DNA from: Parageobacillus caldoxylosilyticus NBRC 107762
Lineage (GTDB): Bacteria > Bacillota > Bacilli > Bacillales > Anoxybacillaceae
NCBI RefSeq assembly: GCF_000632715.1
Contig: NZ_BAWO01000048.1
Coordinates: 6,835 to 30,834, forward strand
DNA length: 24,000 bases
Direction of reading: 5' to 3'
Positions 1 to 15,416 of this stretch are shown in pieces (the first letter of the stretch is position 1; each line of letters starts with the position of its first letter). Position numbers and translations under genes: made by a program. The notes beneath the pieces were generated by a model, which saw nothing but the letters and a program-made list of their open reading frames with translations, made no database searches and was not told where the DNA came from.

Positions 1-1535
1 ACGATAAACACAAAATGCGGGGAAAACCGTTTTTTCTCTTTTTCCTCATCGAGATCGCGTTCCCGCAATATCTCGTAAATGGACGACAACAATTGGTCAC
101 GTGTCTGTTCGTTATAAATAAATCCTTTCGCGAAAGAATTGGGCAGTTGAAAATGCGGGAGCCATTTCATCCATTCCCAATCCTTATAATCCTTTTCAGC
201 AAAGATGGCAACAAACCGTACATCGTGGTAACTGTGGAAAAAGGCGATTTGCCCTACAAGCTGCTGAATTTCATGATTGACGATCGAAGCTTTCCCGATC
301 ATTCCCATTGCCCCGCTTGACAAATCAATCGTAAGCGGCACATTTTTTACGGTTTGATAAACTTGCGCCATCTGTTGAGCTTGCTCCAATAAATCATCGA
401 TTTCCCGATTGGCTAAATCACTCATACTCACCGACACTTCATAGGTAGACGGAACATCCGCTTTTCCGATCCGAAGATGGAGGAAATCGTCGCTTTCCAT
501 CGTTCGTTCCCAAATACGGTCGCTAATTTGCAATGCGAACGATTTCATCTTTTCAAATGACGGAAAGTGGTAATATAGCACGTTTCTTTGTTTCTCGTAT
601 AGTGCGTGAAGCTCTTCCCGTTTTTGTTCCAAGTAATTCGTATAAATGCGCCGTCGTTTCTCTTTCCGTGCTTTGCGATTCTTTCTTTCCCGAAAATATT
701 GCACGGTCGATGTCACTAACGTGGTCGCAAACATCACGATCGAAATGAGGATAAAGATGCCCCGTGGTTGAATTAAAGCAATAACCCCCATAACAAGAAG
801 CATCATCAACGGCGGTAAAATCATTAGCCATAAACCGCGCTGATCCCCATCTCCTTCTTGGCTTGGAAATGAAACCGTGACCTTTTCTCTTGGCGGTTCA
901 TAAATCATGCGCGGTGTCCGGTGATAAACAGGATATTTTTTTTTCATTTCTGAAACCGGCGGCAATGTTTCCGTCAGCAAAGATGTTATCTCTTGGCTGC
1001 TCGTGACCGCTAATAAATCATCCTCTAAAAAAACAAATTGTACATACGGACATAGGATCACGTCCCCGTTTTGTAAAGGTGCCATGTTAGATATTTTCGC
1101 TCCATTGAGAAACAGAGGTGATTCATGGTTTGGAGCAACCAACCATTCTCCTTGCTGCTTGACAAACGATACCCTCGCTGTTTTGGTTTGAATGTCTGCT
1201 TGTAGATCAGGCGCCACCATCAGTTCGGTTTTATTGCCGACGTAATAAATGTGCGTTTTTATTTCCTTGTCCATCCACACGACCGTAATCGTTTGTCCAT
1301 CGTCATCCACCGTAAAGGGAGTATACGGCTTCAATTCCCCAATTGGTTTATCTCCTTGCAGCACCGTCATGGCGGAAGCATCTGTTTGTTTGATTTCTAT
1401 ATATCCGTTACGAAATAAAAAGGATGGGATGGTGATATGATGCTCCAGTTTATTTCCGATAGAAATGCAACCCTCTTGTCCTGTCAGTGGGAATAGCTGG
1501 CAAGTATCCTTATAAAAAATCCATAATTGACTCAT
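1..1535 (-). CDS. essC: Type VIIb secretion FtsK/SpoIIIE-family ATPase EssC/YukB, N-terminal ~511 codons (the rest lies beyond the left edge)
   Basis: Manual minus-strand translation from ATG 1535..1533 (RBS AGGAGAGG 5 nt upstream) gives MSQLWIFYKDTCQLFPLTGQEGCISIGNKLEHHITIPSFLFRNGYIEIKQ... The same frame later reads ...RGLWLMILPPLMMLLVMGVIALIQPRGIFILISIVMFATTLVTSTVQYFRERKNRK... (two TM helices) and ...FFHSYHDVRFVAIFAEKDYKDWEWMKWLPHFQLP... This is colinear with remembered B. subtilis YukB (MSLLWVFY..., WEWMKWLPQF). The frame stays open to position 1, which explains its absence from the ORF track. Confidence 0.9.
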   Translation of the reverse strand, partial: MSQLWIFYKDTCQLFPLTGQEGCISIGNKLEHHITIPSFLFRNGYIEIKQTDASAMTVLQGDKPIGELKPYTPFTVDDDGQTITVVWMDKEIKTHIYYVGNKTELMVAPDLQADIQTKTARVSFVKQQGEWLVAPNHESPLFLNGAKISNMAPLQNGDVILCPYVQFVFLEDDLLAVTSSQEITSLLTETLPPVSEMKKKYPVYHRTPRMIYEPPREKVTVSFPSQEGDGDQRGLWLMILPPLMMLLVMGVIALIQPRGIFILISIVMFATTLVTSTVQYFRERKNRKARKEKRRRIYTNYLEQKREELHALYEKQRNVLYYHFPSFEKMKSFALQISDRIWERTMESDDFLHLRIGKADVPSTYEVSVSMSDLANREIDDLLEQAQQMAQVYQTVKNVPLTIDLSSGAMGMIGKASIVNHEIQQLVGQIAFFHSYHDVRFVAIFAEKDYKDWEWMKWLPHFQLPNSFAKGFIYNEQTRDQLLSSIYEILRERDLDEEKEKKRFSPHFVFI

Positions 1536-1577: not shown

Positions 1578-2912
1578 TTATTTTTTCGTTTCCGCATTGT
1601 TTGGCTTCGCGCTATTAGATGCAGGCGGCTTATGATTAGGCGCCGGTGTGTTGGACTGTTGTTTTGGCGCCGTCGAAGCCGGAGGGCTGGTTGCCGGCTG
1701 CTGTACCGGGGGTTGCTGCTGGCTTGTCTCCTCTTGCTGCTTTTCTTTCAATTGCTTTTCCTGCTCCTCTCTTTCTTTCTCATATTCTTCTATCTCTCTA
1801 TCAATCTCTTCTAATTTTTGCTGCTTTTCCTCTCCGGACAACTCTTCGTCCGCCTTTATTTCTTCACGGTATTTTAACAAACCGTACATAATCAGCTCCC
1901 TATCTTCCATCGCTCTCGCCAATTCAAGCGCGTCCTCGCTTCTTCCCCGGCCGATATAAATCCAATACAGCAAATACTGCGGGTCTGTTTTCAACGTAAT
2001 ATTATTTAATACCACTTTCTGCTGCTCTTCCGTAAGCGACTCTGTCATGACATAGGAAGAAGCAAGTTCATATTGCACTACATACGGCATTTTTTCTGGA
2101 GGATAATTTTCTAATGTCGTAATCACGTCGCTATATTTATTTTGTAAAAACAGCTCGGTACTTTGGATATATGCTTCTTGTTTTGGCTGCAAAAAAAAGA
2201 AGGAATAAAACGTATAAATCATAGCAGGAATTAACAAACCAACTGTCGAAAAGAATATATATCGTTGCATAGTCCATTTTCGTTTTGGAATATGTACAGA
2301 CGCTCGTTCTTTTGCTTCTTCCTCATCCATCCATCGTTCTAAAATGGACAAAAGCGCTTCTAGGTTTTCTGCTTGCAACATTTCCTTAGCGATATCGGAA
2401 CATTTTAATGTTTCATGAAATTTAAAGTATTCTTCAAAACGGTGTTGCCCGTCTGTCAATGCTAGCACCGTCGCTTTTACTTCTTGAAGGAGACGTGCTT
2501 CATCCGGTTCATACGGCGGCAGGCTCTCCTTTATTCCGACATGAAGGAAAAAAGGTTCCAATCCATGATCAAACACAAGGTTTTCCGGGCATATAATAAG
2601 GATAAACCGACGAAGAGAGTGATTTTTCACTTTTGTGACGAGTTGATATGCCGCTCTTAGCCGGGAAAGCAGCGATTTTTTCCGTACAGCTGGAAACGAA
2701 AAAAACGATGCGGGTGGAGTGATGGTGATCTTCACTTCATCCTCAGACACGTCAATATCCCGTAACAAATAAGGATCGATTTCCTTTATGATCTGTAATT
2801 CTAGCGGATGCTGCATTTTTAATTTCGCACGCTGGAAGACAATCGTGTAATGTTTATCTTTGGTCATTACGGCATCGATTTGCGTTTCCAAATAGGTCTT
2901 TTTCTCTTCCAT
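1578..2912 (-). CDS. essB: T7SSb membrane component EssB/YukC (pseudokinase-like N-domain, one TM, extracellular C-domain with low-complexity tail)
   Basis: ORF 1578..2972. I prefer the internal ATG at 2912 (MEEKKTYLETQIDAVMTKDKHYTIVFQRAKL...). It aligns with the B. subtilis YukC N-terminus (MSGEQKSYLENQLEAV...) and removes the overlap with yukD. Conserved blocks include LIICPENLVFDHGLEPFFLHVGIKESLPPYE, HIPKRKWTMQRYI and the TM FFSTVGLLIPAMIYTFYSFFFL. The start could alternatively be 2972. Confidence 0.88.
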   Translation of the reverse strand: MEEKKTYLETQIDAVMTKDKHYTIVFQRAKLKMQHPLELQIIKEIDPYLLRDIDVSEDEVKITITPPASFFSFPAVRKKSLLSRLRAAYQLVTKVKNHSLRRFILIICPENLVFDHGLEPFFLHVGIKESLPPYEPDEARLLQEVKATVLALTDGQHRFEEYFKFHETLKCSDIAKEMLQAENLEALLSILERWMDEEEAKERASVHIPKRKWTMQRYIFFSTVGLLIPAMIYTFYSFFFLQPKQEAYIQSTELFLQNKYSDVITTLENYPPEKMPYVVQYELASSYVMTESLTEEQQKVVLNNITLKTDPQYLLYWIYIGRGRSEDALELARAMEDRELIMYGLLKYREEIKADEELSGEEKQQKLEEIDREIEEYEKEREEQEKQLKEKQQEETSQQQPPVQQPATSPPASTAPKQQSNTPAPNHKPPASNSAKPNNAETKK

Positions 2913-2946
2913 AATAAAATAGAACTCCTTTTCTCTTTCTCGATGG

Positions 2947-3186
2947 CTACAATATAACGATGCGGTCTCCATCCGTAATTCCGCTGTCCTTTAATGTAAA
3001 ATAGCCCGGGCAGACCATTTGTTTATTGTCTACCCGCACCCAGTAGCCTTCTCTTGGCGGCGCCGATATGTTTTTTAACTGCCAAACAATATCGATGAGT
3101 TTTTTGATCGAATAAAAATTGGACAGACGAAGATCAAATACATCCTCTGTATAATGCCGGAGATCGATTGTGACTTGAATGTACAT
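2947..3186 (-). CDS. yukD: Ubiquitin-like T7SSb accessory protein YukD/EsaB (79 aa)
   Basis: ORF 2947..3255 trimmed to ATG 3186 (RBS GGGGG 8 nt upstream). MYIQVTIDLRHYTEDVFDLRLSNFYSIKKLIDIVWQLKNISAPPREGYWVRVDNKQMV...GITDGDRIVIL is colinear over its full length with the remembered 79-aa B. subtilis YukD (MYIDITIDLKHYNGSVFDLRLS...PPREGHWIRV...GITNGDRLEIL). Confidence 0.9.
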   Translation of the reverse strand: MYIQVTIDLRHYTEDVFDLRLSNFYSIKKLIDIVWQLKNISAPPREGYWVRVDNKQMVCPGYFTLKDSGITDGDRIVIL

Positions 3187-3263
3187 GAGATAAGCCCCCA
3201 ATATAGAAAAAAGCGCCATAATCTTTCTTAGATTTGTAGCGCTTTTTTCGAACATGTCACTCT

Positions 3264-3557
3264 TTATCCACGGATTTGGCTGGCGATTTGCTGATCTGTT
3301 TCTTCCAAAATCGTAGCGGAATTGTGCAATTGTTGCGCAATTTCGTTTAATAGTACAGCCATTTTTTCAAACGATGGGCGCAACTCGTGATACTGCTGGA
3401 TAAATGCTTGACTGGAAGCACCTTCCCAAATTCCTTGCAGCATATTGCTCATTTGATCCAATCGTGAAACCAATTCCGTGACATTAGAGCTTTCTGTATT
3501 ATATTGTCTTGCGACTCCACGCAATTCTTCCGGTGTTAAACGAATAACGCCTGACAT
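3264..3557 (-). CDS. esxA: WXG100 secreted substrate EsxA/YukE (97 aa)
   Basis: ORF 3264..3578 trimmed to ATG 3557 (RBS GGGGGAG 5 nt upstream). MSGVIRLTPEELRGVARQY...LQGIWEGASSQAF...ETDQQIASQIRG has a central W-E-G motif. It is colinear with B. subtilis YukE (MAGLIRVTPEELRAMAKQY...MWEGASSEAF...STDQDIANQIRG). Confidence 0.93.
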   Translation of the reverse strand: MSGVIRLTPEELRGVARQYNTESSNVTELVSRLDQMSNMLQGIWEGASSQAFIQQYHELRPSFEKMAVLLNEIAQQLHNSATILEETDQQIASQIRG

Positions 3558-3590
3558 AGTTTCTCCCCCTATAGCCATATTTTCCCTTTT

Positions 3591-3620
3591 ATTTTAATGA
3601 AGATGACAAGCAGCGGTCAA
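3591..3620 (-). promoter_or_regulatory. Putative sigmaA-type promoter of the esxA-yukD-essB-essC operon
   Basis: The minus strand reads TTGACC (3620..3615), an 18-nt spacer, then TAAAAT (3596..3591). This lies about 35 nt upstream of the esxA start codon. Confidence 0.5.
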
Positions 3621-3803
3621 CAATATATAACCATTTCTTTTAAAATAAGGAAAAAGTAGTATTTTTCCCTGATTGTCCAATGATTTTGTGCCATTTTTCT
3701 CATTACGATAGATACTTTCTTACTATTCATGGAATTAAAAGAAGACGGAGTATAGGAGGAGTGTACGGGGATAGGCGGGGCTGATGTTCATTAACCCCCT
3801 CAT

Positions 3804-4136
3804 TTATCTTTTCTTTTCCCGAATAATGACATCATAATACAAGGTGATATTTTGTCCTCTCATCTCATTAATCATGTCTGTGTATAGCGAAGCGACGTAT
3901 CTCATGTCGTCCCTGAACGTATAATTAATCGATAGGTTATTTTCTTGATACTGTTTTATCGCTTCATTGGTTTTGTCGATGATTTGCCCACTGCCATATT
4001 TCATTTCATGATGAATCAAATGAACCAATTCCTCATCCAATTCACTCATTCTATTTAATTGTTGAATAAAAGTGTTCGCTTTATACGTAAAATCCTGCTC
4101 TAGACCAAAATTATAGAGCATATTCAGTTGTCCCAT
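3804..4136 (-). CDS. 110-aa helix-turn-helix (WXG100-like, but Y-G-S-G instead of W-x-G) protein; candidate T7SS effector partner/chaperone
   Basis: ORF 3804..4376 trimmed to ATG 4136, because the upstream 240 nt overlap the lipase gene in another frame. The RBS AAGGAGGGG spans the lipase stop codon (4153-4155). In MGQLNMLYNFGLEQDFTYKANTFIQQLNRMSELDEELVHLIHHEMKYGSGQIIDKTNEAIKQYQENNLSINYTFRDDMRYVASLYTDMINEMRG..., two long amphipathic segments flank a central KYGSGQ turn at residues 46-51. Function is inferred from size, shape and context only. Confidence 0.6.
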   Translation of the reverse strand: MGQLNMLYNFGLEQDFTYKANTFIQQLNRMSELDEELVHLIHHEMKYGSGQIIDKTNEAIKQYQENNLSINYTFRDDMRYVASLYTDMINEMRGQNITLYYDVIIREKKR

Positions 4137-4152
4137 ACAAAATATCCCCTCC

Positions 4153-6075
4153 TTATCCATATCGCAAATCAAATATTTTGGACACATTTTGGTCCTGCTC
4201 AAAAAACTCCTCAAACGATTTTTTAATGGTTTCAATGAGTTCTTTTCCTCTAGAAATTTCATGTTCATAATACGAAAACATCGATTCTTCAAAGATATAC
4301 GGAATCCTCCGATCCAACGGTGGAATAGACTCATGGACATCAATGCGGCGTAACACATACACTTGTTTTGCATCATCGGTAAAATGCCCCAATAAATGCT
4401 GATAAGCCCAGGGATTTTGTTCCATGTCCTCGATTTTCTTCATCAGTTCTCGTTTTTGTGTTTCAAAATCCTCTACATATTCATGTAAATAGCTCTGCTT
4501 CATCTCATTCAATACCGCTTCTTTTTCTTCCATAATTTGCAGTCCCTTTAGATATATTCTTACGGCGGAGGAAAGATTCATCCGGATTTCACGTTCTCCC
4601 ACCTTCTTGATTAAAATCAAATTTCCATTCTCATCATACGTTCTGCCTTTGGAACGGGCGAGAGCATTGATGACTTCGTTCAAGGAATGGGCATTCACGC
4701 TTGTGGTGATAGCATTTTGAAGATTCTTCGTATTTTCTTGGATGATTTGAAGACGTTTTTCAATGTCCAATACCTTATCCCGAATTTGGAATAACGTCTC
4801 AATGCATTGAAGAATATCAACAGGATTTAAGAGAACGATCCCATTCCATAGTTCATGAAGCAGCTGTTGTATCAATGTGACATCTTTTTCAATTCCCTTG
4901 ACTTCTCTCAACACTGTGTTCTTTTCCTCTACCGTCATGTAGCCTAATTGCACGAATACACTCAACATCGGGTCCAGATTTTTATACAGTATTCCGATGT
5001 GCTTGAGCAGCACTGGAATCTTCTCACTCATTTCATCGTACATATGATCGATTTTAGAAAGAATGTCTTTTGCATGCATCACATAGTCTATGGCATCATA
5101 GCCCTGAAGCGACTCAATAAAGGCGATATCGACCCCCGTCATCGCCTGAACGACCCCATCAAATCCTTTTTCATTATAAACATCTGAATATTGCGACAAA
5201 TATACTTGAATGGCTTTTACATCTTTATCGGATATTTTCGCAATCAAATCTTTGATACTAGTAAAATCCTTGTTCGTATCAATGACCTGGCGGCTTCCGA
5301 TATCGATGAACCCCCGCACCCCGCTCACCGCATACAATAGATCCTCCTGGGCGGTCAGATGATGAATCGAACGCTCGTCGATTTGCTTTTTATAATATTC
5401 TTCCGCAAAGGCCTTGAGCTCGGAAGGGGGGAGGGAGTAAATTTCTTCATAATGATCAAAATTTAAATTGAATTTTTTTACTAATTGGCCCCAGAAGTAC
5501 TCATCAATCGTTGCTAATTGATAAAAACTGGGCGGTGCATCGTTAATAACATATACTTTTTCATATCTCTTTTCAGTGAGTTGTATTGTCTCGTTTAAGT
5601 TCCCACCCAATGAATGTCCCAGTCCGATTTTCTTTAGTTTGATTTTGTTATCACTGCGTCCAACTTTTTCATTAATTTTCTGTGTCACAATCTGGTCAAA
5701 TCGCAATGCAGCATCGTATTGACTCCTATTTTGTCCAACGAAAATCCCGAAAACATTGTAAGTCCAATCAAGGGGCTTCCAAGTGTCTTTTTCCGGCGCT
5801 TCGCTTCCCCTTGTAATGGTATATAATTGATTGATTCCCTTTTCCTCGTCATAAAAATGAATTGCTGTTCCATCAAAACCAGAATCAATATGACTGAAAT
5901 CTTTAAAATCATCAGAGCGATAAATCGTAATGTGAGCGGGCGGCTCTTTTCCTGTTTCTTCGATATAAATTCTTTTGATTTCTCTTTTGATTTCATCAAT
6001 GGTCAGATTTTGATATTCTACATTCATAATCCGCGCACGCAATATATCCGTATTTAGCACTTCTTCATTTGACAC
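4153..6075 (-). CDS. 640-aa alpha/beta-hydrolase (lipase-like, GHSLGG nucleophile elbow) with a long C-terminal helical domain; candidate T7SSb-secreted lipase toxin
   Basis: Uninterrupted 640-codon ORF with GTG start 6075..6073 and RBS GGGAGGTGA 7 nt upstream. There is no signal peptide or TM segment. The N-terminal part reads YTITRGSE..WKPLDWTYN..LKKIGLGHSLGGN, with G-H-S155-L-G-G encoded at 5602..5619. Residues ~260-640 are E/K/L/I/Q-rich with long Pro-free stretches, suggesting coiled helices. It sits in the same orientation 596 bp upstream of esxA. CDS reality is high; the toxin role is inference. Confidence 0.75.
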   Translation of the reverse strand: MSNEEVLNTDILRARIMNVEYQNLTIDEIKREIKRIYIEETGKEPPAHITIYRSDDFKDFSHIDSGFDGTAIHFYDEEKGINQLYTITRGSEAPEKDTWKPLDWTYNVFGIFVGQNRSQYDAALRFDQIVTQKINEKVGRSDNKIKLKKIGLGHSLGGNLNETIQLTEKRYEKVYVINDAPPSFYQLATIDEYFWGQLVKKFNLNFDHYEEIYSLPPSELKAFAEEYYKKQIDERSIHHLTAQEDLLYAVSGVRGFIDIGSRQVIDTNKDFTSIKDLIAKISDKDVKAIQVYLSQYSDVYNEKGFDGVVQAMTGVDIAFIESLQGYDAIDYVMHAKDILSKIDHMYDEMSEKIPVLLKHIGILYKNLDPMLSVFVQLGYMTVEEKNTVLREVKGIEKDVTLIQQLLHELWNGIVLLNPVDILQCIETLFQIRDKVLDIEKRLQIIQENTKNLQNAITTSVNAHSLNEVINALARSKGRTYDENGNLILIKKVGEREIRMNLSSAVRIYLKGLQIMEEKEAVLNEMKQSYLHEYVEDFETQKRELMKKIEDMEQNPWAYQHLLGHFTDDAKQVYVLRRIDVHESIPPLDRRIPYIFEESMFSYYEHEISRGKELIETIKKSFEEFFEQDQNVSKIFDLRYG

Positions 6076-6099
6076 AAAATCTTCACCTCCCTCTCTCCA

Positions 6100-6741
6100 T
6101 CAATACTGAAATTTTATCGATTTCATAAACATTTTTGCCCGTTCTTCTTCTTTCTGTACATCCATGTTACACTTCTGGTTTGCGTCCTTACAAGTGACTG
6201 CATATATAAATCGGACTGCTTGATAGCTGTGATTCGACTTTACATAGCTGAAAAAATAATAAATAATATCATTATTGGAAATATGTTGTTCATTCTTACC
6301 AAAGTAAATCGTGTTGTTATTAGATTCAAATTTTGTATATTTGCCATTATAGTGGACATAGGTAGATAATAAATCAAGGTTTACATCAATGTTTTCCGTT
6401 ATTTTTGCATTTTCATATGTCATTCTGATATAGTTAGATATATTTTCTTTTTCTCTTCCCCCTCCCAAATGTATAGATTCATAATATTTTTTATGCTTTT
6501 CATAAAACATGCGGTCTATTTTTGCATTTTTCGGATACAGCATCGTAAAGCCGCCGGTTTTCGACTTGAATAAGTAATATCCTTCTTTCACTTCTTTTGG
6601 CGAGACCATAAATTCCCGAGTAAACTTGTCTTGAAATGCCACCGTGTCCGGCAACTTCTCCGGTTGAGCCTTTGAATCCATCTCACACCCTCCGATCCAT
6701 ATCAACATCAATAGCAGCAAATTTCTCCATCGCTTAAGCAA
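6100..6741 (-). CDS. Lipoprotein of unknown family (213 aa); candidate extracytoplasmic immunity protein for the adjacent lipase
   Basis: ORF 6100..6789 re-started at TTG 6741..6739, with RBS GAAAGGAGA 7 nt upstream. This gives MLKRWRNLLLLMLIWIGGC-EMDSKAQPEK..., with a positively charged n-region, hydrophobic core and lipobox I-G-G-C. The ATG at 6789 has no SD. The stop at 6100 is 24 nt from the lipase GTG, with the lipase RBS in between. The gene is very AT-rich; the 60-nt line starting at 6301 has 15 G+C. Confidence 0.7.
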   Translation of the reverse strand: MLKRWRNLLLLMLIWIGGCEMDSKAQPEKLPDTVAFQDKFTREFMVSPKEVKEGYYLFKSKTGGFTMLYPKNAKIDRMFYEKHKKYYESIHLGGGREKENISNYIRMTYENAKITENIDVNLDLLSTYVHYNGKYTKFESNNNTIYFGKNEQHISNNDIIYYFFSYVKSNHSYQAVRFIYAVTCKDANQKCNMDVQKEEERAKMFMKSIKFQY

Positions 6742-6971
6742 AGGACAGTCTCCTTTCCCAATTATCTCCATTCTCTCTATACGTATCATATGATCACGGT
6801 GTGATCAATAAAAAATGTTATTATATCCAAATTCAAGAAAAAAGAACTATAGCTTTAAGAGGAAATGTAGGCGACTTATGACTTTAGACCTTATTGATGA
6901 ATCAGAGAAATGAAAAGAAAATGGGGGGCTTGTCTTGCATGTCCTTTGAGGGGATTTTTGAAAGAGGTACC

Positions 6972-7385
6972 TGACATACACTTGGTCAAATCGATGTGCA
7001 GTGAGTTGGATCATTTCGACATGGTTCCCGCCCAGCGAATGACCCACAATCCGATTTTTTTCAGTTCGATTGTTTGACCGTTCCTCTTTAATTCTTCGGT
7101 AATGATTTGTGTCACTTTCCGGTCAAATTCCAATGCATCTCTATATTGACTTCTGCTTTGCCCGACGAAAATTCCAAAAGCATTGTAAGCCCAGTCGAGC
7201 GGCTTCCAAGTATCGTTTTCCTGCATTTCACTTCCCCGTGCAATGGTATACATTTGATTGATTCCTTTTTCCTCATCGTATAGATGAATCACCGTGCCAT
7301 CAAAACCGGAATCGATGTCGTTCAAATTTTTAAAGTCGTCCGAATGGTACACGCGGATATGGGCGGGAGGCTCGCTGCCTGTCCC
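6972..7385 (-). pseudogene. Truncated, frameshifted paralogue of the lipase N-terminal domain (corresponds to about aa 41-177 of the 640-aa protein)
   Basis: Two track ORFs (7011..7352 and 6847..7047) in different frames together read TGSEPPAHIRVYHSDDFKNLNDIDSGFDGTVIHLYDEEKGINQMYTIARGSE..WKPLDWAYNAFGIFVGQSRSQY...ELKKIGL / GHSLGGNHVEMIQLTAHRFDQVYV. The intact gene has TGKEPPAHITIYRSDDFKDFSHIDSGFDGTAIHFYDEEKGINQLYTITRGSE..WKPLDWTYNVFGIFVGQNRSQY...KLKKIGLGHSLGGNLNETIQLTEKRYEKVYV. The frames are offset by a 2-nt length difference just before the GHSLGG codons: ggattgtgggtcat versus ggactgggacat. Similarity is lost upstream of ~7385 and downstream of ~6972, so there is no N-terminus and no helical domain. 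Confidence 0.85.
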
Positions 7386-7543
7386 TTTTGATTTCCTCTG
7401 CGGGAAGATAAAAAATCAATAAGAGAACACAAAACTTACTTTATTTAATATCAAGACGAATTTATGAAATTTAAAGATATCAAGTATTATATATATAAAT
7501 AATGATAAAGGTTTTTTATTGGAAGGAAAGGTGCTATATTATG

Positions 7544-7569
7544 AAAAAAGACCGGCATCATGCCGGCTC
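7544..7569 (-). terminator. Rho-independent terminator of the LysM/3D gene
   Basis: The minus strand reads GAGCCGGCatgatGCCGGTC followed by TTTTTT, 6 nt after the stop codon at 7575. Confidence 0.8.
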
Positions 7570-7574
7570 CTTGA

Positions 7575-8138
7575 TTATTTATATACTTTAACTTTTACTG
7601 TTCTGACACCCCATTGGATAGCTTTTGCTTTTGTAGGCATGAGTACGTCAATTTTATAGCCTCTGATTCCGCTTCCTTTATCAGCTGCAACCGCATAGCC
7701 GTAACCTTCCACATAAACTTTTGAACCTAACGGAATTACCTTTGGATCAACGGCAATTACTTTCATCGAAGGGTTTTTCTTTAAATTTAAGCCTGTAGCC
7801 GTTATTCCGCGGCAGCCTTTACAGTTTACTGTATAAGCATATGCTTTAACGGTGATTGTTTTGTACGCTGCTGTTTTGGCTGCTGCTTTTTTTACTGTAG
7901 TTTTAGCAGCCGCTTTGGTTACTGGTCCTGAAATCTTTAAAACCTGCTTTGGTTTGATCAAATCGCTTTTAAGGTTATTCCATCTCTTTAGCTGGCTGAC
8001 AGTCACTTTATACTTTTTAGCTATACCCCAAAGAGTGTCACCACTTTTTACCTGATATGTACCGGCTGCCGATGCAGCTCCTGAAAATCCGAATGCTAGA
8101 AAGATTGATGAAGTAATATATAATAGTAATTTTTTCAA
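7575..8138 (-). CDS. Secreted LysM + 3D (MltA-like/Sps) domain cell-wall-binding protein, YocH-like
   Basis: TTG start 8138 with RBS AAGGGGGG 8 nt upstream. The signal peptide is MKKLLLYITSSIFLAFGFSGAASA/AG. The LysM block is YQVKSGDTLWGIAKKYKVTVSQLKRWNNLKSDLIKPKQVLKI, followed by an A/K/T-rich linker. The C-terminal 3D-type block is ITATGLNLKKNPSMKVIAVDPKVIPLGSKVYVEGYGYAVAADKGSGIRGYKIDVLM. Confidence 0.85.
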   Translation of the reverse strand: MKKLLLYITSSIFLAFGFSGAASAAGTYQVKSGDTLWGIAKKYKVTVSQLKRWNNLKSDLIKPKQVLKISGPVTKAAAKTTVKKAAAKTAAYKTITVKAYAYTVNCKGCRGITATGLNLKKNPSMKVIAVDPKVIPLGSKVYVEGYGYAVAADKGSGIRGYKIDVLMPTKAKAIQWGVRTVKVKVYK

Positions 8139-8187
8139 GATAATAACCCCCCTTGCTTACATTCGTAACAATAGAATATCAATAAAA

Positions 8188-8204
8188 TGTAACAATTATG
8201 TTTC
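8188..8204 (+). promoter_or_regulatory. WalR(YycF)-like direct repeat upstream of the YocH-like gene
   Basis: TGTAAC-aatta-TGTTTC matches 11 of 12 specified positions of the published B. subtilis WalR consensus TGT(A/T)A(A/T/C)-N5-TGT(A/T)A(A/T/C). It lies 50-66 nt upstream of the TTG start. Additional TGTWAC-type hexamers occur at 8221-8226 and, with one mismatch, at 8165-8170. B. subtilis yocH is a known WalRK regulon member. Confidence 0.4.
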
Positions 8205-8494
8205 ATAGAATTAGTAATTATGTTACAAAATGAAGACATAATTGTATCATCTTGTTTTTTCTTGACTTTTAGTTCCTCCATCATCAGATAGACCGTAATG
8301 AACCCCTCCCACCTTCATTCCATGAAGAGGTGGGAGTTTCTTACCATCTCCATCGAAGAAGCTTCTGCTCGGAAGAAGGCGGTCTTCTTCCGCTCGATGA
8401 ATGCATCGGAAGCCTTCTTGATGGATCCAGTAAGCAACATCGGCATCACACCGATGGGGCGGTCCAACCCTTCTACTACTTCTTGCTTACGCAT

Positions 8495-8524
8495 AAAAAA
8501 GGTGCACTTCCTATCAAGTGCACC
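8495..8524 (-). terminator. Second (tandem) rho-independent terminator downstream of ssrA
   Basis: The minus strand reads GGTGCACTTgataggAAGTGCACC, a 9-bp perfect stem, followed by TTTTTTAT. Confidence 0.65.
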
Positions 8525-8548
8525 CCAACAATTGACATAGAACCAATG

Positions 8549-8581
8549 AAAAAACGGACTTGCCATTATCGGCAAATCCGT
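8549..8581 (-). terminator. Rho-independent terminator of ssrA
   Basis: The minus strand reads ACGGATTTGCCgataatGGCAAGTCCGT, an 11-bp stem with one G-U pair, followed by TTTTTT. It starts about 30 nt after the tmRNA 3' end. Confidence 0.8.
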
Positions 8582-8613
8582 TGATTTATTTTTTAAGCAT
8601 ATGATTAAGTATA

Positions 8614-8964
8614 TGGAGACGGTGGGAGTCGAACCCACGTCCAGAGATATCGCCACTTAAGCATCTACGAGCGTAGTCGGTATATTTGGTTTCGCTGCAT
8701 CTTCCGCCTACCGACAGGCCTCCGAGCAGCTAGCCTGGTTCGTCTCTTCCCTCGTCCTCAGGCGGCGGACTCGGGCGTAGCCCACTCGCTATGAGCCCCT
8801 GAACCGCCACGTGGGCGATGGCGGGAGGAGCTAGCTGCGTTTAATTAGGCAGCTAAAGCGTAGTTTTCTTTGCCAGTTATCTTTAGGTGACGTTTTTTAC
8901 GAGGACGATCCCCTCGGCTCGCAGCTTAAGCTCGATCTATCCCTGTCGAATCCGTATCGTCCCC
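8614..8964 (-). ncRNA. ssrA: tmRNA (SsrA), tag reading frame (A)GKENYALAA
   Basis: The minus-strand 5' end is GGGGACGATACGGATTCGACAGGG (from 8964). The 3' end is GGACGTGGGTTCGACTCCCACCGTCTCCA (to 8614). The acceptor stem has the G3:U70 pair, and the CCA tail is not encoded. The tag ORF GGC AAA GAA AAC TAC GCT TTA GCT GCC TAA spans 8874..8845, preceded by AAAGATAACT as in B. subtilis (AATATAACTGGCAAA...). Confidence 0.97.
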
Positions 8965-14825: not shown

Positions 14826-15236
14826 TTATTTTCCGCGGTGTTTCGCTTTTGCTTTAAGGCGCTTAAGCTCTCTTTTTCGCTCCATAAGAGCTTGGCGTTG
14901 TTCCTTTCGCAATACCTTTCTCTCTTTTTTACGATGTTCCAATTCTAGCTTAAGGGCGGTTTGTGCGTAGGTGGAAAACGACCGCTCTTTTATTTCTTTT
15001 GCCGCTTCTCGCTGTATCCGTTTCGGGTTTTTACGCCGTTGCAGTTGTGCAGGGATAACAGCGGCTGTATGGCATTGGTTCAATAACGCGAGCATCGGTC
15101 CATTGACAAACGCCAACACTTCTTCCGATTTCGGTTCAGAACCAAACACGTAGCGGACCGCTTTTAAGGTCTCATTTTCCTTCTGTTCCACCACCCCAAC
15201 CCAAAATTGGCCATCGTAAAAAACCGTCAGCTTCAT
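14826..15236 (-). CDS. yjdF: YjdF-family (DUF2992-like) small basic protein
   Basis: The 136-aa product is MKLTVFYDGQFWVGVVEQKENETLKAVRYVFGSEPKSEEVLAFVNGPM... with a K/R/E-rich C-terminal half ending KAKAKHRGK. The RBS AAAGGAGGGA lies 6 nt upstream. The N-terminal MKLT..YDGQFWVG..FGSEP pattern is what I remember for B. subtilis YjdF-type proteins. The family assignment is from memory, not a search. Confidence 0.7.
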   Translation of the reverse strand: MKLTVFYDGQFWVGVVEQKENETLKAVRYVFGSEPKSEEVLAFVNGPMLALLNQCHTAAVIPAQLQRRKNPKRIQREAAKEIKERSFSTYAQTALKLELEHRKKERKVLRKEQRQALMERKRELKRLKAKAKHRGK

Positions 15237-15356
15237 GAAAGGTCCCTCCTTTAGAAATTGCCAACAGCGATGGACATCCCAAGGAGGGGAAGATTACTGA
15301 CACTCGTTTCCGAGTGCGCCCGGACTACCAACCGGGACTGTGTTTTTACGCTGTCT
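15237..15356 (-). promoter_or_regulatory. Structured 5' leader with an RBS-sequestering helix; candidate yjdF-class riboswitch
   Basis: On the minus strand, downstream of a perfect TATAAT (15368..15363), I see an outer helix ACAGCG...CGCTGT. Inside it are the local hairpins CCCGGttggtagtCCGGG and CACTCGgaaaCGAGTG (GAAA loop). The segment CCCTCCTT is perfectly complementary to the RBS AAGGAGGG of the downstream gene. Confidence 0.5.
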
Positions 15357-15416
15357 ACGTTTATTATACGTACTGCATCCACTCATATGGAAGCCGTTCT
15401 TTGCTATTTTCTATCG

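Follow-up and report, generated by a model that had tools for sequence, protein, structure and literature searches.

A DUF6792 hydrolase cassette ahead of the type VII secretion genes of Parageobacillus caldoxylosilyticus is a candidate reverse-polarity toxin locus with YvcA-type lipoprotein immunity

The closest described counterparts of the locus reported here are the reverse toxins of type VIIb secretion systems (T7SSb). In Staphylococcus aureus, the gene of TslA (Tsl1 family) closes a tandem row of lipoprotein (DUF576) genes at its 3' end and precedes the genes of two small helical partners, TlaA1 and TlaA2, and the catalytic triad of TslA (S164/D224/H251) lies wholly within the N-terminal domain (Garrett et al., 2023; PMC10730906). 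In TslM (Tsl2 family), the C-terminal helical domain is bound by a single WXG100 partner, TlaM; the corresponding Til2 immunity proteins are divergently encoded DUF1433 membrane proteins, the Tsl2 homologues of Bacillus and Listeria are about 400 amino acids (aa) long, and the authors put the number of known reverse families at just two (Higginson et al., 2026; PMC13560087). "Reverse lipases" have further been noted in one Neobacillus and one Paenibacillus, at loci of the types T7SSe and T7SSg (Garrett and Palmer; PMC11217815). Here, we describe a three-gene cassette that lies ahead of the T7SSb genes esxA-yukD-essB-essC in a 24,000-nt stretch of Parageobacillus caldoxylosilyticus NBRC 107762 DNA (contig NZ_BAWO01000048.1, positions 6,835 to 30,834; hereafter the window). 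With moderate confidence, we propose that it encodes a T7SSb-exported polymorphic hydrolase toxin of reverse polarity, together with a YvcA-type lipoprotein conferring immunity and a dedicated small helical partner.

The whole cassette and the T7SSb genes are on the minus strand. All coordinates are positions in the window, and the features concerned are as follows.

6847..7352, minus strand: DUF6792 relic, a second toxin allele covering about aa 52-176 (two open reading frame pieces match PF20591, 1.8e-33 and 6.5e-05)
6100..6789, minus strand: YvcA-type lipoprotein of 229 aa, candidate immunity protein (NCBIfam lipoprotein YvcA, E 5.5e-29; lipobox)
4153..6075 including the stop codon, minus strand: DUF6792 alpha/beta hydrolase of 640 aa, candidate toxin (PF20591)
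3804..4136, minus strand: small protein of 110 aa, candidate export partner (own ribosome-binding site, GGAGGGG)
3591..3620, minus strand: promoter-like site ahead of esxA (TTGACC-18-TAAAAT, 10/12 matches)
3264..3557 with the ATG at 3557, minus strand: esxA, WXG100 protein of 97 aa (PF06013, 1.2e-20; TIGR03930, 2.5e-25)
2947..3255, minus strand: yukD, ubiquitin-like T7SSb component (PF08817, 1.2e-13)
1578..2972, minus strand: essB/yukC (PF10140, 1.1e-124; TIGR03926, 3.1e-143)
1..1535, minus strand: 5' part of essC, its first 512 codons, running past the window end (tblastn with the EssC of locus L002: aa 1-512, 93% identity, a single high-scoring segment pair)

A preliminary description of this DNA had reported an intact open reading frame (ORF) with a strong ribosome-binding site, co-oriented with esxA-yukD-essB-essC and ending 596 bp upstream of esxA with no strong terminator in between. 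All of this was borne out, with the strand, which had gone unmentioned, now given as minus. The 640-aa ORF starts with GTG and has the ribosome-binding site GGGAGGTGA 8 nt upstream, its stop (4153) is 596 nt from the esxA ATG (3557), and a scan of the minus strand between these two points revealed no terminator-like sites.

The position of the cassette was compared across species by scanning one genome per species, which yielded 55 loci, and by searching these loci with the window proteins. Counts were based on the 47 in which the DUF6792 gene was full-length and the sequence continued for at least 3 kb downstream. The order lipoprotein(s), DUF6792 gene, ~110-aa ORF and esxA-yukD-essB-essC, all on one strand, was found in 25 of these 47 species-level loci. 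Within the linked group, the esxA start lay 484-733 bp past the DUF6792 stop, with the small ORF alone in between, at 24 of the 25 loci. At the exceptional one (L017, Aquibacillus rhizosphaerae, 2950-8316), 5.7 kb separated the cassette from esxA and held a sortase gene, a HAD hydrolase gene and two ORFs lacking Pfam matches. The linked loci belonged to Parageobacillus-type thermophiles, Geobacillus, Metabacillus, Fictibacillus, Neobacillus, Cytobacillus, Sutcliffiella and Mesobacillus, with 35-45% protein identity; their upstream neighbours varied, and rnr-smpB was seen only in loci L001-L004. The three-gene cassette itself was present in all loci examined, each having a homologous small ORF 3' of the hydrolase gene, including those missed by tblastn. 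The preliminary description had held that homologues never linked to ess/yuk loci would speak against its reading; linkage was present in the 25 loci above, and the other 22 of the 47 were stand-alone islands, none of which had a WXG100 gene within 10 kb and some of which neighboured transposase, methylase or HNH genes.

A divergent version of the hydrolase, 537 aa long and related to the family with an hhalign probability of 100%, was found on Priestia megaterium plasmids, among them plasmid pC (L058, 4735-8472). This protein keeps the GHSLGG motif, the conserved His and the C-terminal helices, and has a much shorter middle bundle. Its gene is flanked by ORFs of 228 and 120 aa, and a divergently transcribed WXG100 gene lies 300 bp away. 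The gene next after the WXG100 gene codes for an ankyrin-repeat protein, which could be a second immunity protein.

Several features of these loci are those of polymorphic toxins. Between one and 11 tandem lipoprotein paralogues lie upstream of the hydrolase gene at each locus (11 at L015, 8 at L019 and 7 at L010). At L015, L019, L010 and L032, 6-11 consecutive YvcA-type lipoprotein genes precede one candidate toxin gene, arrays that by analogy resemble immunity islands and may be compared with the DUF576 clusters of S. aureus. In addition to the relic in the window, truncated N-terminal DUF6792 relics were present in at least nine loci. The window relic (aa 52-176) is truncated at both ends and has a frameshift exactly at the GHSLGG codons. 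Since it matches N-terminal alleles of other Parageobacillus proteins at 84-89% identity and the adjoining intact gene at only 70%, we regard it as the remnant of a displaced allele, which suggests that the toxin has been replaced by recombination.

The tandem copies of Geobacillus icigianus (L005, 6564-17207) illustrate where this diversity resides. Four lipoprotein-DUF6792 pairs are followed there by a single partner ORF and then by esxA, the third toxin being truncated at 533 aa. The hydrolases are 50-75% identical over aa 1-200, compared with 86-100% over aa 300-640, and the lipoproteins are 59-84% identical, the top value belonging to the pair with near-identical hydrolase N-termini. Similarly, the Parageobacillus alleles are mosaics in which aa 1-240 and 321-440 are variable and aa 241-320 and 441-640 are conserved. 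Among 61 close pairs, the divergence of the lipoprotein tracked that of the hydrolase core (rho 0.80) and not that of the C-terminus (0.19), whereas the divergence of the small ORF tracked that of the C-terminus (rho 0.93) and not that of the core (0.26).

The 640-aa protein was assigned to PF20591 (DUF6792, AB_hydrolase clan) with a score of 282.3 bits, the cut-off being 25, and the match over aa 20-248 spans profile positions 1-220 of 220; all 36 aligned homologues matched this profile. No Pfam family other than PF20591, Lipase_3 (class-3 lipase) included, gave a match at E<1 in the 36 members, and we therefore rejected the class-3 lipase label that the protein had been given. The only paper that we found on DUF6792 limits its resemblance to lipases to a strand permutation common to some lipases, and leaves its function open (PMC11878206). 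The homologues are Bacillaceae proteins of 600-720 aa annotated solely as DUF6792, with occasional spurious names, e.g., FlgN. The motifs quoted previously are all present, YTITRGSE at 85-92, PLDW at 101-104 and GHS155LGG at 153-158, and the parts of the protein that matter below are the following.

5332..6018, minus strand: hydrolase core, aa 20-248 (PF20591 match, 282 bits), one of two allele-variable regions (allele mosaicism)
5602..5619, minus strand: nucleophile elbow G153-H-S155-L-G-G158 (conservation in 119 sequences)
4690..5073, minus strand: middle helical bundle, aa 335-462 (predicted helices; least conserved part, much shortened in a ~535-aa subfamily)
4687..4689, minus strand: His463, candidate catalytic His (sole invariant His outside the GHS motif)
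4156..4575, minus strand: C-terminal pair of long helices, aa 501-640, constant region (predicted helices 501-553 and 590-625)

Among 119 homologues, the invariant residues include G153, H154, S155, G157, G158, D103, N178, D283, G511 and H463, and L156 is at least 90% conserved. Beyond the GHS motif, H463 is the sole invariant His in these sequences; H239 and H240 are substituted in some members, and no invariant His follows the motif within aa 1-300. Position 245 is always acidic among the aligned homologues. The AlphaFold2 (AF2) model of the protein, with a predicted local distance difference test score (pLDDT) of 85.5 and a predicted template modelling score (pTM) of 0.76, has a mixed alpha/beta core to about residue 265, helices over 275-474 and a small beta unit at 478-500. 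Its long helices are at 335-376, 382-414 and 418-447, forming the middle bundle, and at 501-553 (53 residues) and 590-625 (36 residues). Past the core, the protein is thus mostly helical, as had been described, the beta unit apart. It was also correctly described as lacking a signal peptide or transmembrane segment: no N-terminal hydrophobic region was found, and the maximal Kyte-Doolittle value of any 19-mer, 1.43, is below transmembrane grade.

In the DUF6792 survey, a helical bundle is placed between strand beta8 and the catalytic His, and co-occurrence with PsbP/Mog1p-like proteins is noted (PMC11878206). In apparent agreement with that account, the AF2 model predicts helices over 283-462, between S155 and the invariant H463. 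Because the sole invariant His follows the helical insertion, the helical region probably belongs to the enzyme, and the earlier division into an N-terminal lipase and a separate C-terminal LXG-like domain appears too simple. The middle bundle (aa 335-462), with a mean consensus frequency of 0.37, is the least conserved part of the protein, and may act as a lid, as an immunity interface or in targeting. Its recombination is independent of that of the hydrolase core, and the ~535-aa subfamily has lost most of it.

Searches with the full-length protein gave little beyond the family itself. Foldseek comparison of the full model with the PDB returned generic alpha/beta hydrolases with weak E-values of about 0.01-0.1, and the whole 640-aa sequence had no match in the PDB. 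When 1.84 billion representatives were searched for other architectures, the best 150 of 316 matches were full-length proteins (about 600-710 aa), members of the ~535-aa subfamily or fragments, and in none of these 150 was either the hydrolase or the C-terminal helical part joined to another domain. As PADLOC and PHROGs gave no informative match, we rejected an origin from a known defence system or a phage.

The upstream lipoprotein has a lipobox, IGGC, at residues 32-35 of the listed ORF (ATG 6789). Its true start is probably TTG 6741, which is preceded by the ribosome-binding site AAAGGAG and would yield a textbook signal peptide, MLKRWRNLLLLMLIWIGG, with C as the next residue. Given that it scored 101.6 bits against NCBIfam YvcA (NF058635), under the 285-bit equivalog cut-off, we consider it a homologue of YvcA and not the B. 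subtilis equivalog. Homologues at other loci carry precomputed PF27181 (YvcA_Mog1p) matches, and 106 of the 111 upstream lipoprotein paralogues have a lipobox-like motif. The 110-aa protein encoded downstream is free of Pro, and has an invariant central Gly50 and the C-terminal motif Q-x-[IL]-T-[LIV]-Y-Y-[DE]. Its homologues are all annotated as hypothetical and none has a Pfam domain; the best match, from Saccharococcus (Parageobacillus) caldoxylosilyticus, is 98% identical.

Neither the C-terminus of the hydrolase nor the small protein showed the LXG/WXG100 likeness that the preliminary description had anticipated. A profile of aa 497-640 gave chance-level matches in the PDB and Pfam, and alignment of the C-terminal region with EsxA by hhalign had a probability below 1%. 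LXG (PF04740) had no match at E<1 in the 36 DUF6792 members, in which the N-terminus is the hydrolase. Foldseek of a separate model of residues 271-640 (pLDDT 78) returned generic four-helix bundles, i.e., a FAT domain and designed bundles, with a best E-value of 0.18 and no T7SS substrates among the best 50. The predicted structure thus lends no support to LXG-likeness, and equally gives no pointer to a specific non-secretion fold, a finding that had been named beforehand as one that would count against export. With regard to the small protein, Pfam searches on 26 homologues gave nothing consistent, and hhalign against EsxA a probability of 0.6%; PF06013 and TIGR03930 (Pfam, NCBIfam) did not match the 110-aa protein, which has no Trp and hence no W-x-G turn. 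An L564-L-G566 motif between the two long C-terminal helices of the hydrolase is not kept family-wide, and inspection of the toxin and partner alignments by eye found no consistently conserved FxxxD- or YxxxD/E-type export motif at the C-termini.

A related cassette was found in the B. subtilis group. Bacillus tequilensis and B. vallismortis encode a 635-aa DUF6792 protein that aligns with the window protein from end to end at 29% identity; that of B. tequilensis keeps the conserved His, with GHSLA at the elbow and not GHSLGG. The gene order in B. tequilensis (L059, 5283-8282) is hisHAFI ... YvcA_Mog1p, DUF6792, a 119-aa ORF, ABC transporter, TPR, NlpC/P60 and TrxB-like, and hhalign (97.6%) places the 119-aa ORF in the partner family. 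We take this order to be that of the B. subtilis yvcA-yvcB-(yvzA)-bmrA-yvcD-cwlO-trxB region. The yvcA-yvcB locus of the B. subtilis group is the same three-gene cassette, present here in single copy among housekeeping genes and unlinked to T7SS genes. In B. subtilis, the yvcA promoter is activated by phosphorylated DegU and yvcA is needed for complex colonies (PMC3033389), deletion of yvcB results in misshapen spores (PMC7426031), and the yukE operon and four LXG operons are activated by DegS-DegU (PMC8321402). The DegU control and the yvcA and yvcB phenotypes fit a toxin and a developmental function alike.

The remaining features of the window concern the upstream edge of the cassette. From 5' to 3' on the minus strand, the genes are rnr, smpB, transfer-messenger RNA (tmRNA), a LysM-3D gene, the DUF6792 relic, the lipoprotein gene, the 640-aa ORF, the 110-aa ORF, esxA, yukD, essB and essC, with two features of note among them.

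8964..8611, minus strand: tmRNA (216 bits)
7551..7567, minus strand: terminator-like hairpin after the LysM-3D gene, the upstream edge of the cassette (7-bp stem with 5 GC pairs, T-run)

Regions adjacent to ssrA are frequent insertion sites of islands. In the window, the tmRNA is followed by two terminator-like hairpins (7551-8582), and the block of toxin and T7SS genes starts ~1 kb downstream, past the LysM-3D gene. Elsewhere in the window, and unrelated to the cassette, an azaaromatic (yjdF) riboswitch was found at 15254-15359 on the minus strand (82.6 bits), directly 5' of a 136-aa ORF (14826-15236).

The data above show which genes are present, their conserved synteny, the polymorphic behaviour of the locus, the pattern of conservation and the fold predicted for the protein, and from these we infer export by the T7SS, binding of the partner, toxicity, a lipid substrate and immunity. 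The 640-aa protein, made without a signal peptide, would be an alpha/beta hydrolase of the serine type that probably acts on the cell envelope as an esterase or (phospho)lipase. Binding of the 110-aa helical protein encoded immediately downstream would fall to its conserved C-terminal helices, at about aa 501-640, perhaps with the participation of the middle bundle, and the resulting complex would be recognized and exported by EssC, EssB, YukD and EsxA. Once exported, the enzyme would attack bacteria nearby, and the YvcA-type lipoprotein, encoded immediately upstream and anchored on the outer face of the producer's membrane, would shield the producer. The hydrolase core and middle bundle would diversify along with the immunity protein, the constant C-terminus retaining a shared export partner. 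A lipid as substrate is guessed from the GXSXG fold of the hydrolase and from the extracytoplasmic location of the immunity protein.

We favour this reading because the synteny, the pairing with a WXG100 gene on the plasmid, the toxin-immunity hallmarks, the reverse polymorphism, the co-variation and the ever-present small ORF all agree with it, as do a toxin lacking a signal peptide or transmembrane segment next to a lipoprotein that has a signal, the precedent of TslA and TslM, and the common DegU control in B. subtilis. The toxin-immunity nature of the cassette is better supported than its T7SS dependence, for which synteny and analogy argue. Several observations weigh against export by the T7SS or against a toxin function. 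Kinship of the C-terminus to LXG or WXG100 proteins was not detected by Pfam, PDB profile, hhalign or Foldseek, nor that of the partner by Pfam or hhalign, and 22 of the 47 loci neither adjoin T7SS genes nor have a WXG100 gene within 10 kb. The promoter-like site of esxA makes its co-transcription with the cassette unnecessary, and synteny among Bacillaceae may partly reflect common descent. The co-variation could arise from physical linkage alone; we treat it as weak support because the immunity gene is 5' and the partner gene 3' of the toxin gene. The helical portion also contains H463, the candidate catalytic His, so that this portion may cap the enzyme instead of serving as a targeting domain. 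Finally, the colony architecture (yvcA) and spore morphology (yvcB) phenotypes were read as developmental by their authors.

The unlinked loci could indicate that the cassette, while a genuine toxin-immunity module, leaves the cell by another route (lysis, vesicles or a partner-dependent path) and stands beside esxA through a shared variable island downstream of ssrA. The transposase, methylase or HNH neighbours of the unlinked islands, the lack of WXG100 genes near them, the tmRNA about 2.5 kb upstream in the window and the absence of detectable LXG/WXG100 similarity are all compatible with such a history. We nonetheless regard it as unlikely, given that the adjacency keeps its order, strand and spacing across many genera despite differing upstream neighbours and that the plasmid copy pairs with a WXG100 gene. 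Moreover, known T7SSb toxins (LXG, TslA and TslM) are also often found away from the ess locus, and the toxin sequence holds no alternative export signal.

The B. subtilis data raise a different explanation, namely that a YvcB-type hydrolase acts on the envelope of its own cell, remodelling membrane or wall with YvcA during biofilm and spore formation, the lipoprotein then being a cofactor or regulator. The DegU-controlled requirement for yvcA in complex colonies (PMC3033389), the misshapen spores of the yvcB deletion (PMC7426031), the single-copy, T7SS-unlinked locus of the B. subtilis group among housekeeping genes and the function left open in the DUF6792 survey (PMC11878206) all leave room for it. 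Such a role leaves unexplained, however, the up to 11 divergent lipoprotein paralogues, the relics, tandem pairs and mosaic alleles, as well as the recurrent position before esxA; colony or spore phenotypes could themselves result when an immunity gene, or a toxin under DegU control, is lost, and we judge a developmental role to be quite improbable. In about half of the species, the cassette has a fixed place heading the ess/yuk operon, which might also be expected of an accessory part of the T7SSb machine, such as a hydrolase aiding assembly or envelope passage. This we consider very improbable: the gene is absent from that place in the remaining species, among them the B. subtilis group, in which the T7SS functions with no DUF6792 gene at the locus, and allelic polymorphism and immunity-like arrays are not expected of machinery.

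A further conjecture, which we put forward as doubtful, concerns the predicted position of His463 between the helical bundle and the candidate partner-binding helices. The DUF6792 triad may be split by the export apparatus, such that the active site is incomplete as long as the protein is partner-bound or extended, and the enzyme becomes active only after secretion and release of the partner. If true, this would be a built-in, secretion-coupled safety catch, which TslA, TslM and the LXG toxins are not known to have, and would redefine B. subtilis yvcA-yvcB-(yvzA) as a T7SS toxin system.

If the proposed export and toxicity are confirmed, the cassette would constitute a third, unrelated reverse T7SS hydrolase family. 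This family, widespread among the Bacillaceae and often placed at the front of the ess/yuk operon, would have immunity proteins (YvcA/Mog1p-like lipoproteins) and a partner family of its own. Confirmation would also assign a function to Pfam DUF6792, offer a testable explanation for the yvcA colony and yvcB spore phenotypes, and provide a tractable system, B. subtilis, for the recognition by T7SSb of C-terminal signals without WXG or LXG motifs. Parageobacillus thermoglucosidasius is likewise genetically tractable. Our literature search found no paper linking DUF6792, PF27181 or yvcB to the T7SS, in agreement with the preliminary description, which knew of no such effector having been characterized in a thermophilic member of the Bacillaceae.

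In its arrangement, the cassette closely recalls TslA, from which DUF6792 is set apart here by published description and not by sequence alignment. Both have a signal-less protein with an N-terminal GXSXG hydrolase (here the invariant GHS155LGG) and a helical C-terminal part, an upstream lipoprotein array of varying copy number and one or more small helical partners downstream, with no WXG/LXG/PE motifs. The preliminary description had suggested that the gene order differs from that of S. aureus, which is incorrect, tslA being likewise located 3' of a tandem lipoprotein cluster and before the genes of small partners (PMC10730906). Its designation of the protein as a TslA-like effector holds for the gene arrangement and the GXSXG hydrolase, and fails for the hydrolase, immunity and partner families, which differ, and for the His, which is displaced. 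Unlike TslA, the 640-aa protein belongs to DUF6792, without a class-3 lipase Pfam match, and the contiguous triad of TslA contrasts with an invariant H463 that follows a helical insertion of ~200 residues. Immunity would be provided by YvcA_Mog1p proteins in place of DUF576, a single Pfam-less partner stands in place of TlaA1/TlaA2, and about half of the species have the DUF6792 cassette immediately beside their ess/yuk genes.

With TslM, the cassette shares the reverse arrangement, a single small partner, and multiple paralogues and orphan immunity genes, and one TslM copy adjoins T7SS genes in S. caledonicus. However, TlaM is a WXG100 protein, whereas the partner described here gave no WXG100 signal by Pfam (26 members) or hhalign; the YvcA-family lipoprotein is co-oriented, in contrast to the divergent DUF1433 membrane immunity proteins; and a confidently predicted helical bundle takes the place of the unstructured linker of TslM. 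On sequence grounds, the cassette would thus be analogous to TslA and TslM while belonging to neither family. The DUF6792 survey (PMC11878206) gives neither a function nor a link to the T7SS, to immunity arrays or to a partner, and those links come from the present analysis. Finally, LXG toxins (B. subtilis YxiD and YeeF, Streptococcus intermedius TelA-C) resemble the cassette in combining a constant trafficking part and a variable toxin part with adjacent cognate immunity, and in their small helical partners, recombination-driven diversity and, in B. subtilis, DegSU control. Here, the polarity is reversed and no PF04740 signal is present, so that the cassette appears, from its sequence organization, as the mirror image of an LXG toxin, in which a variable N-terminal enzyme is paired with its cognate immunity protein and a constant helical C-terminus with a shared partner.

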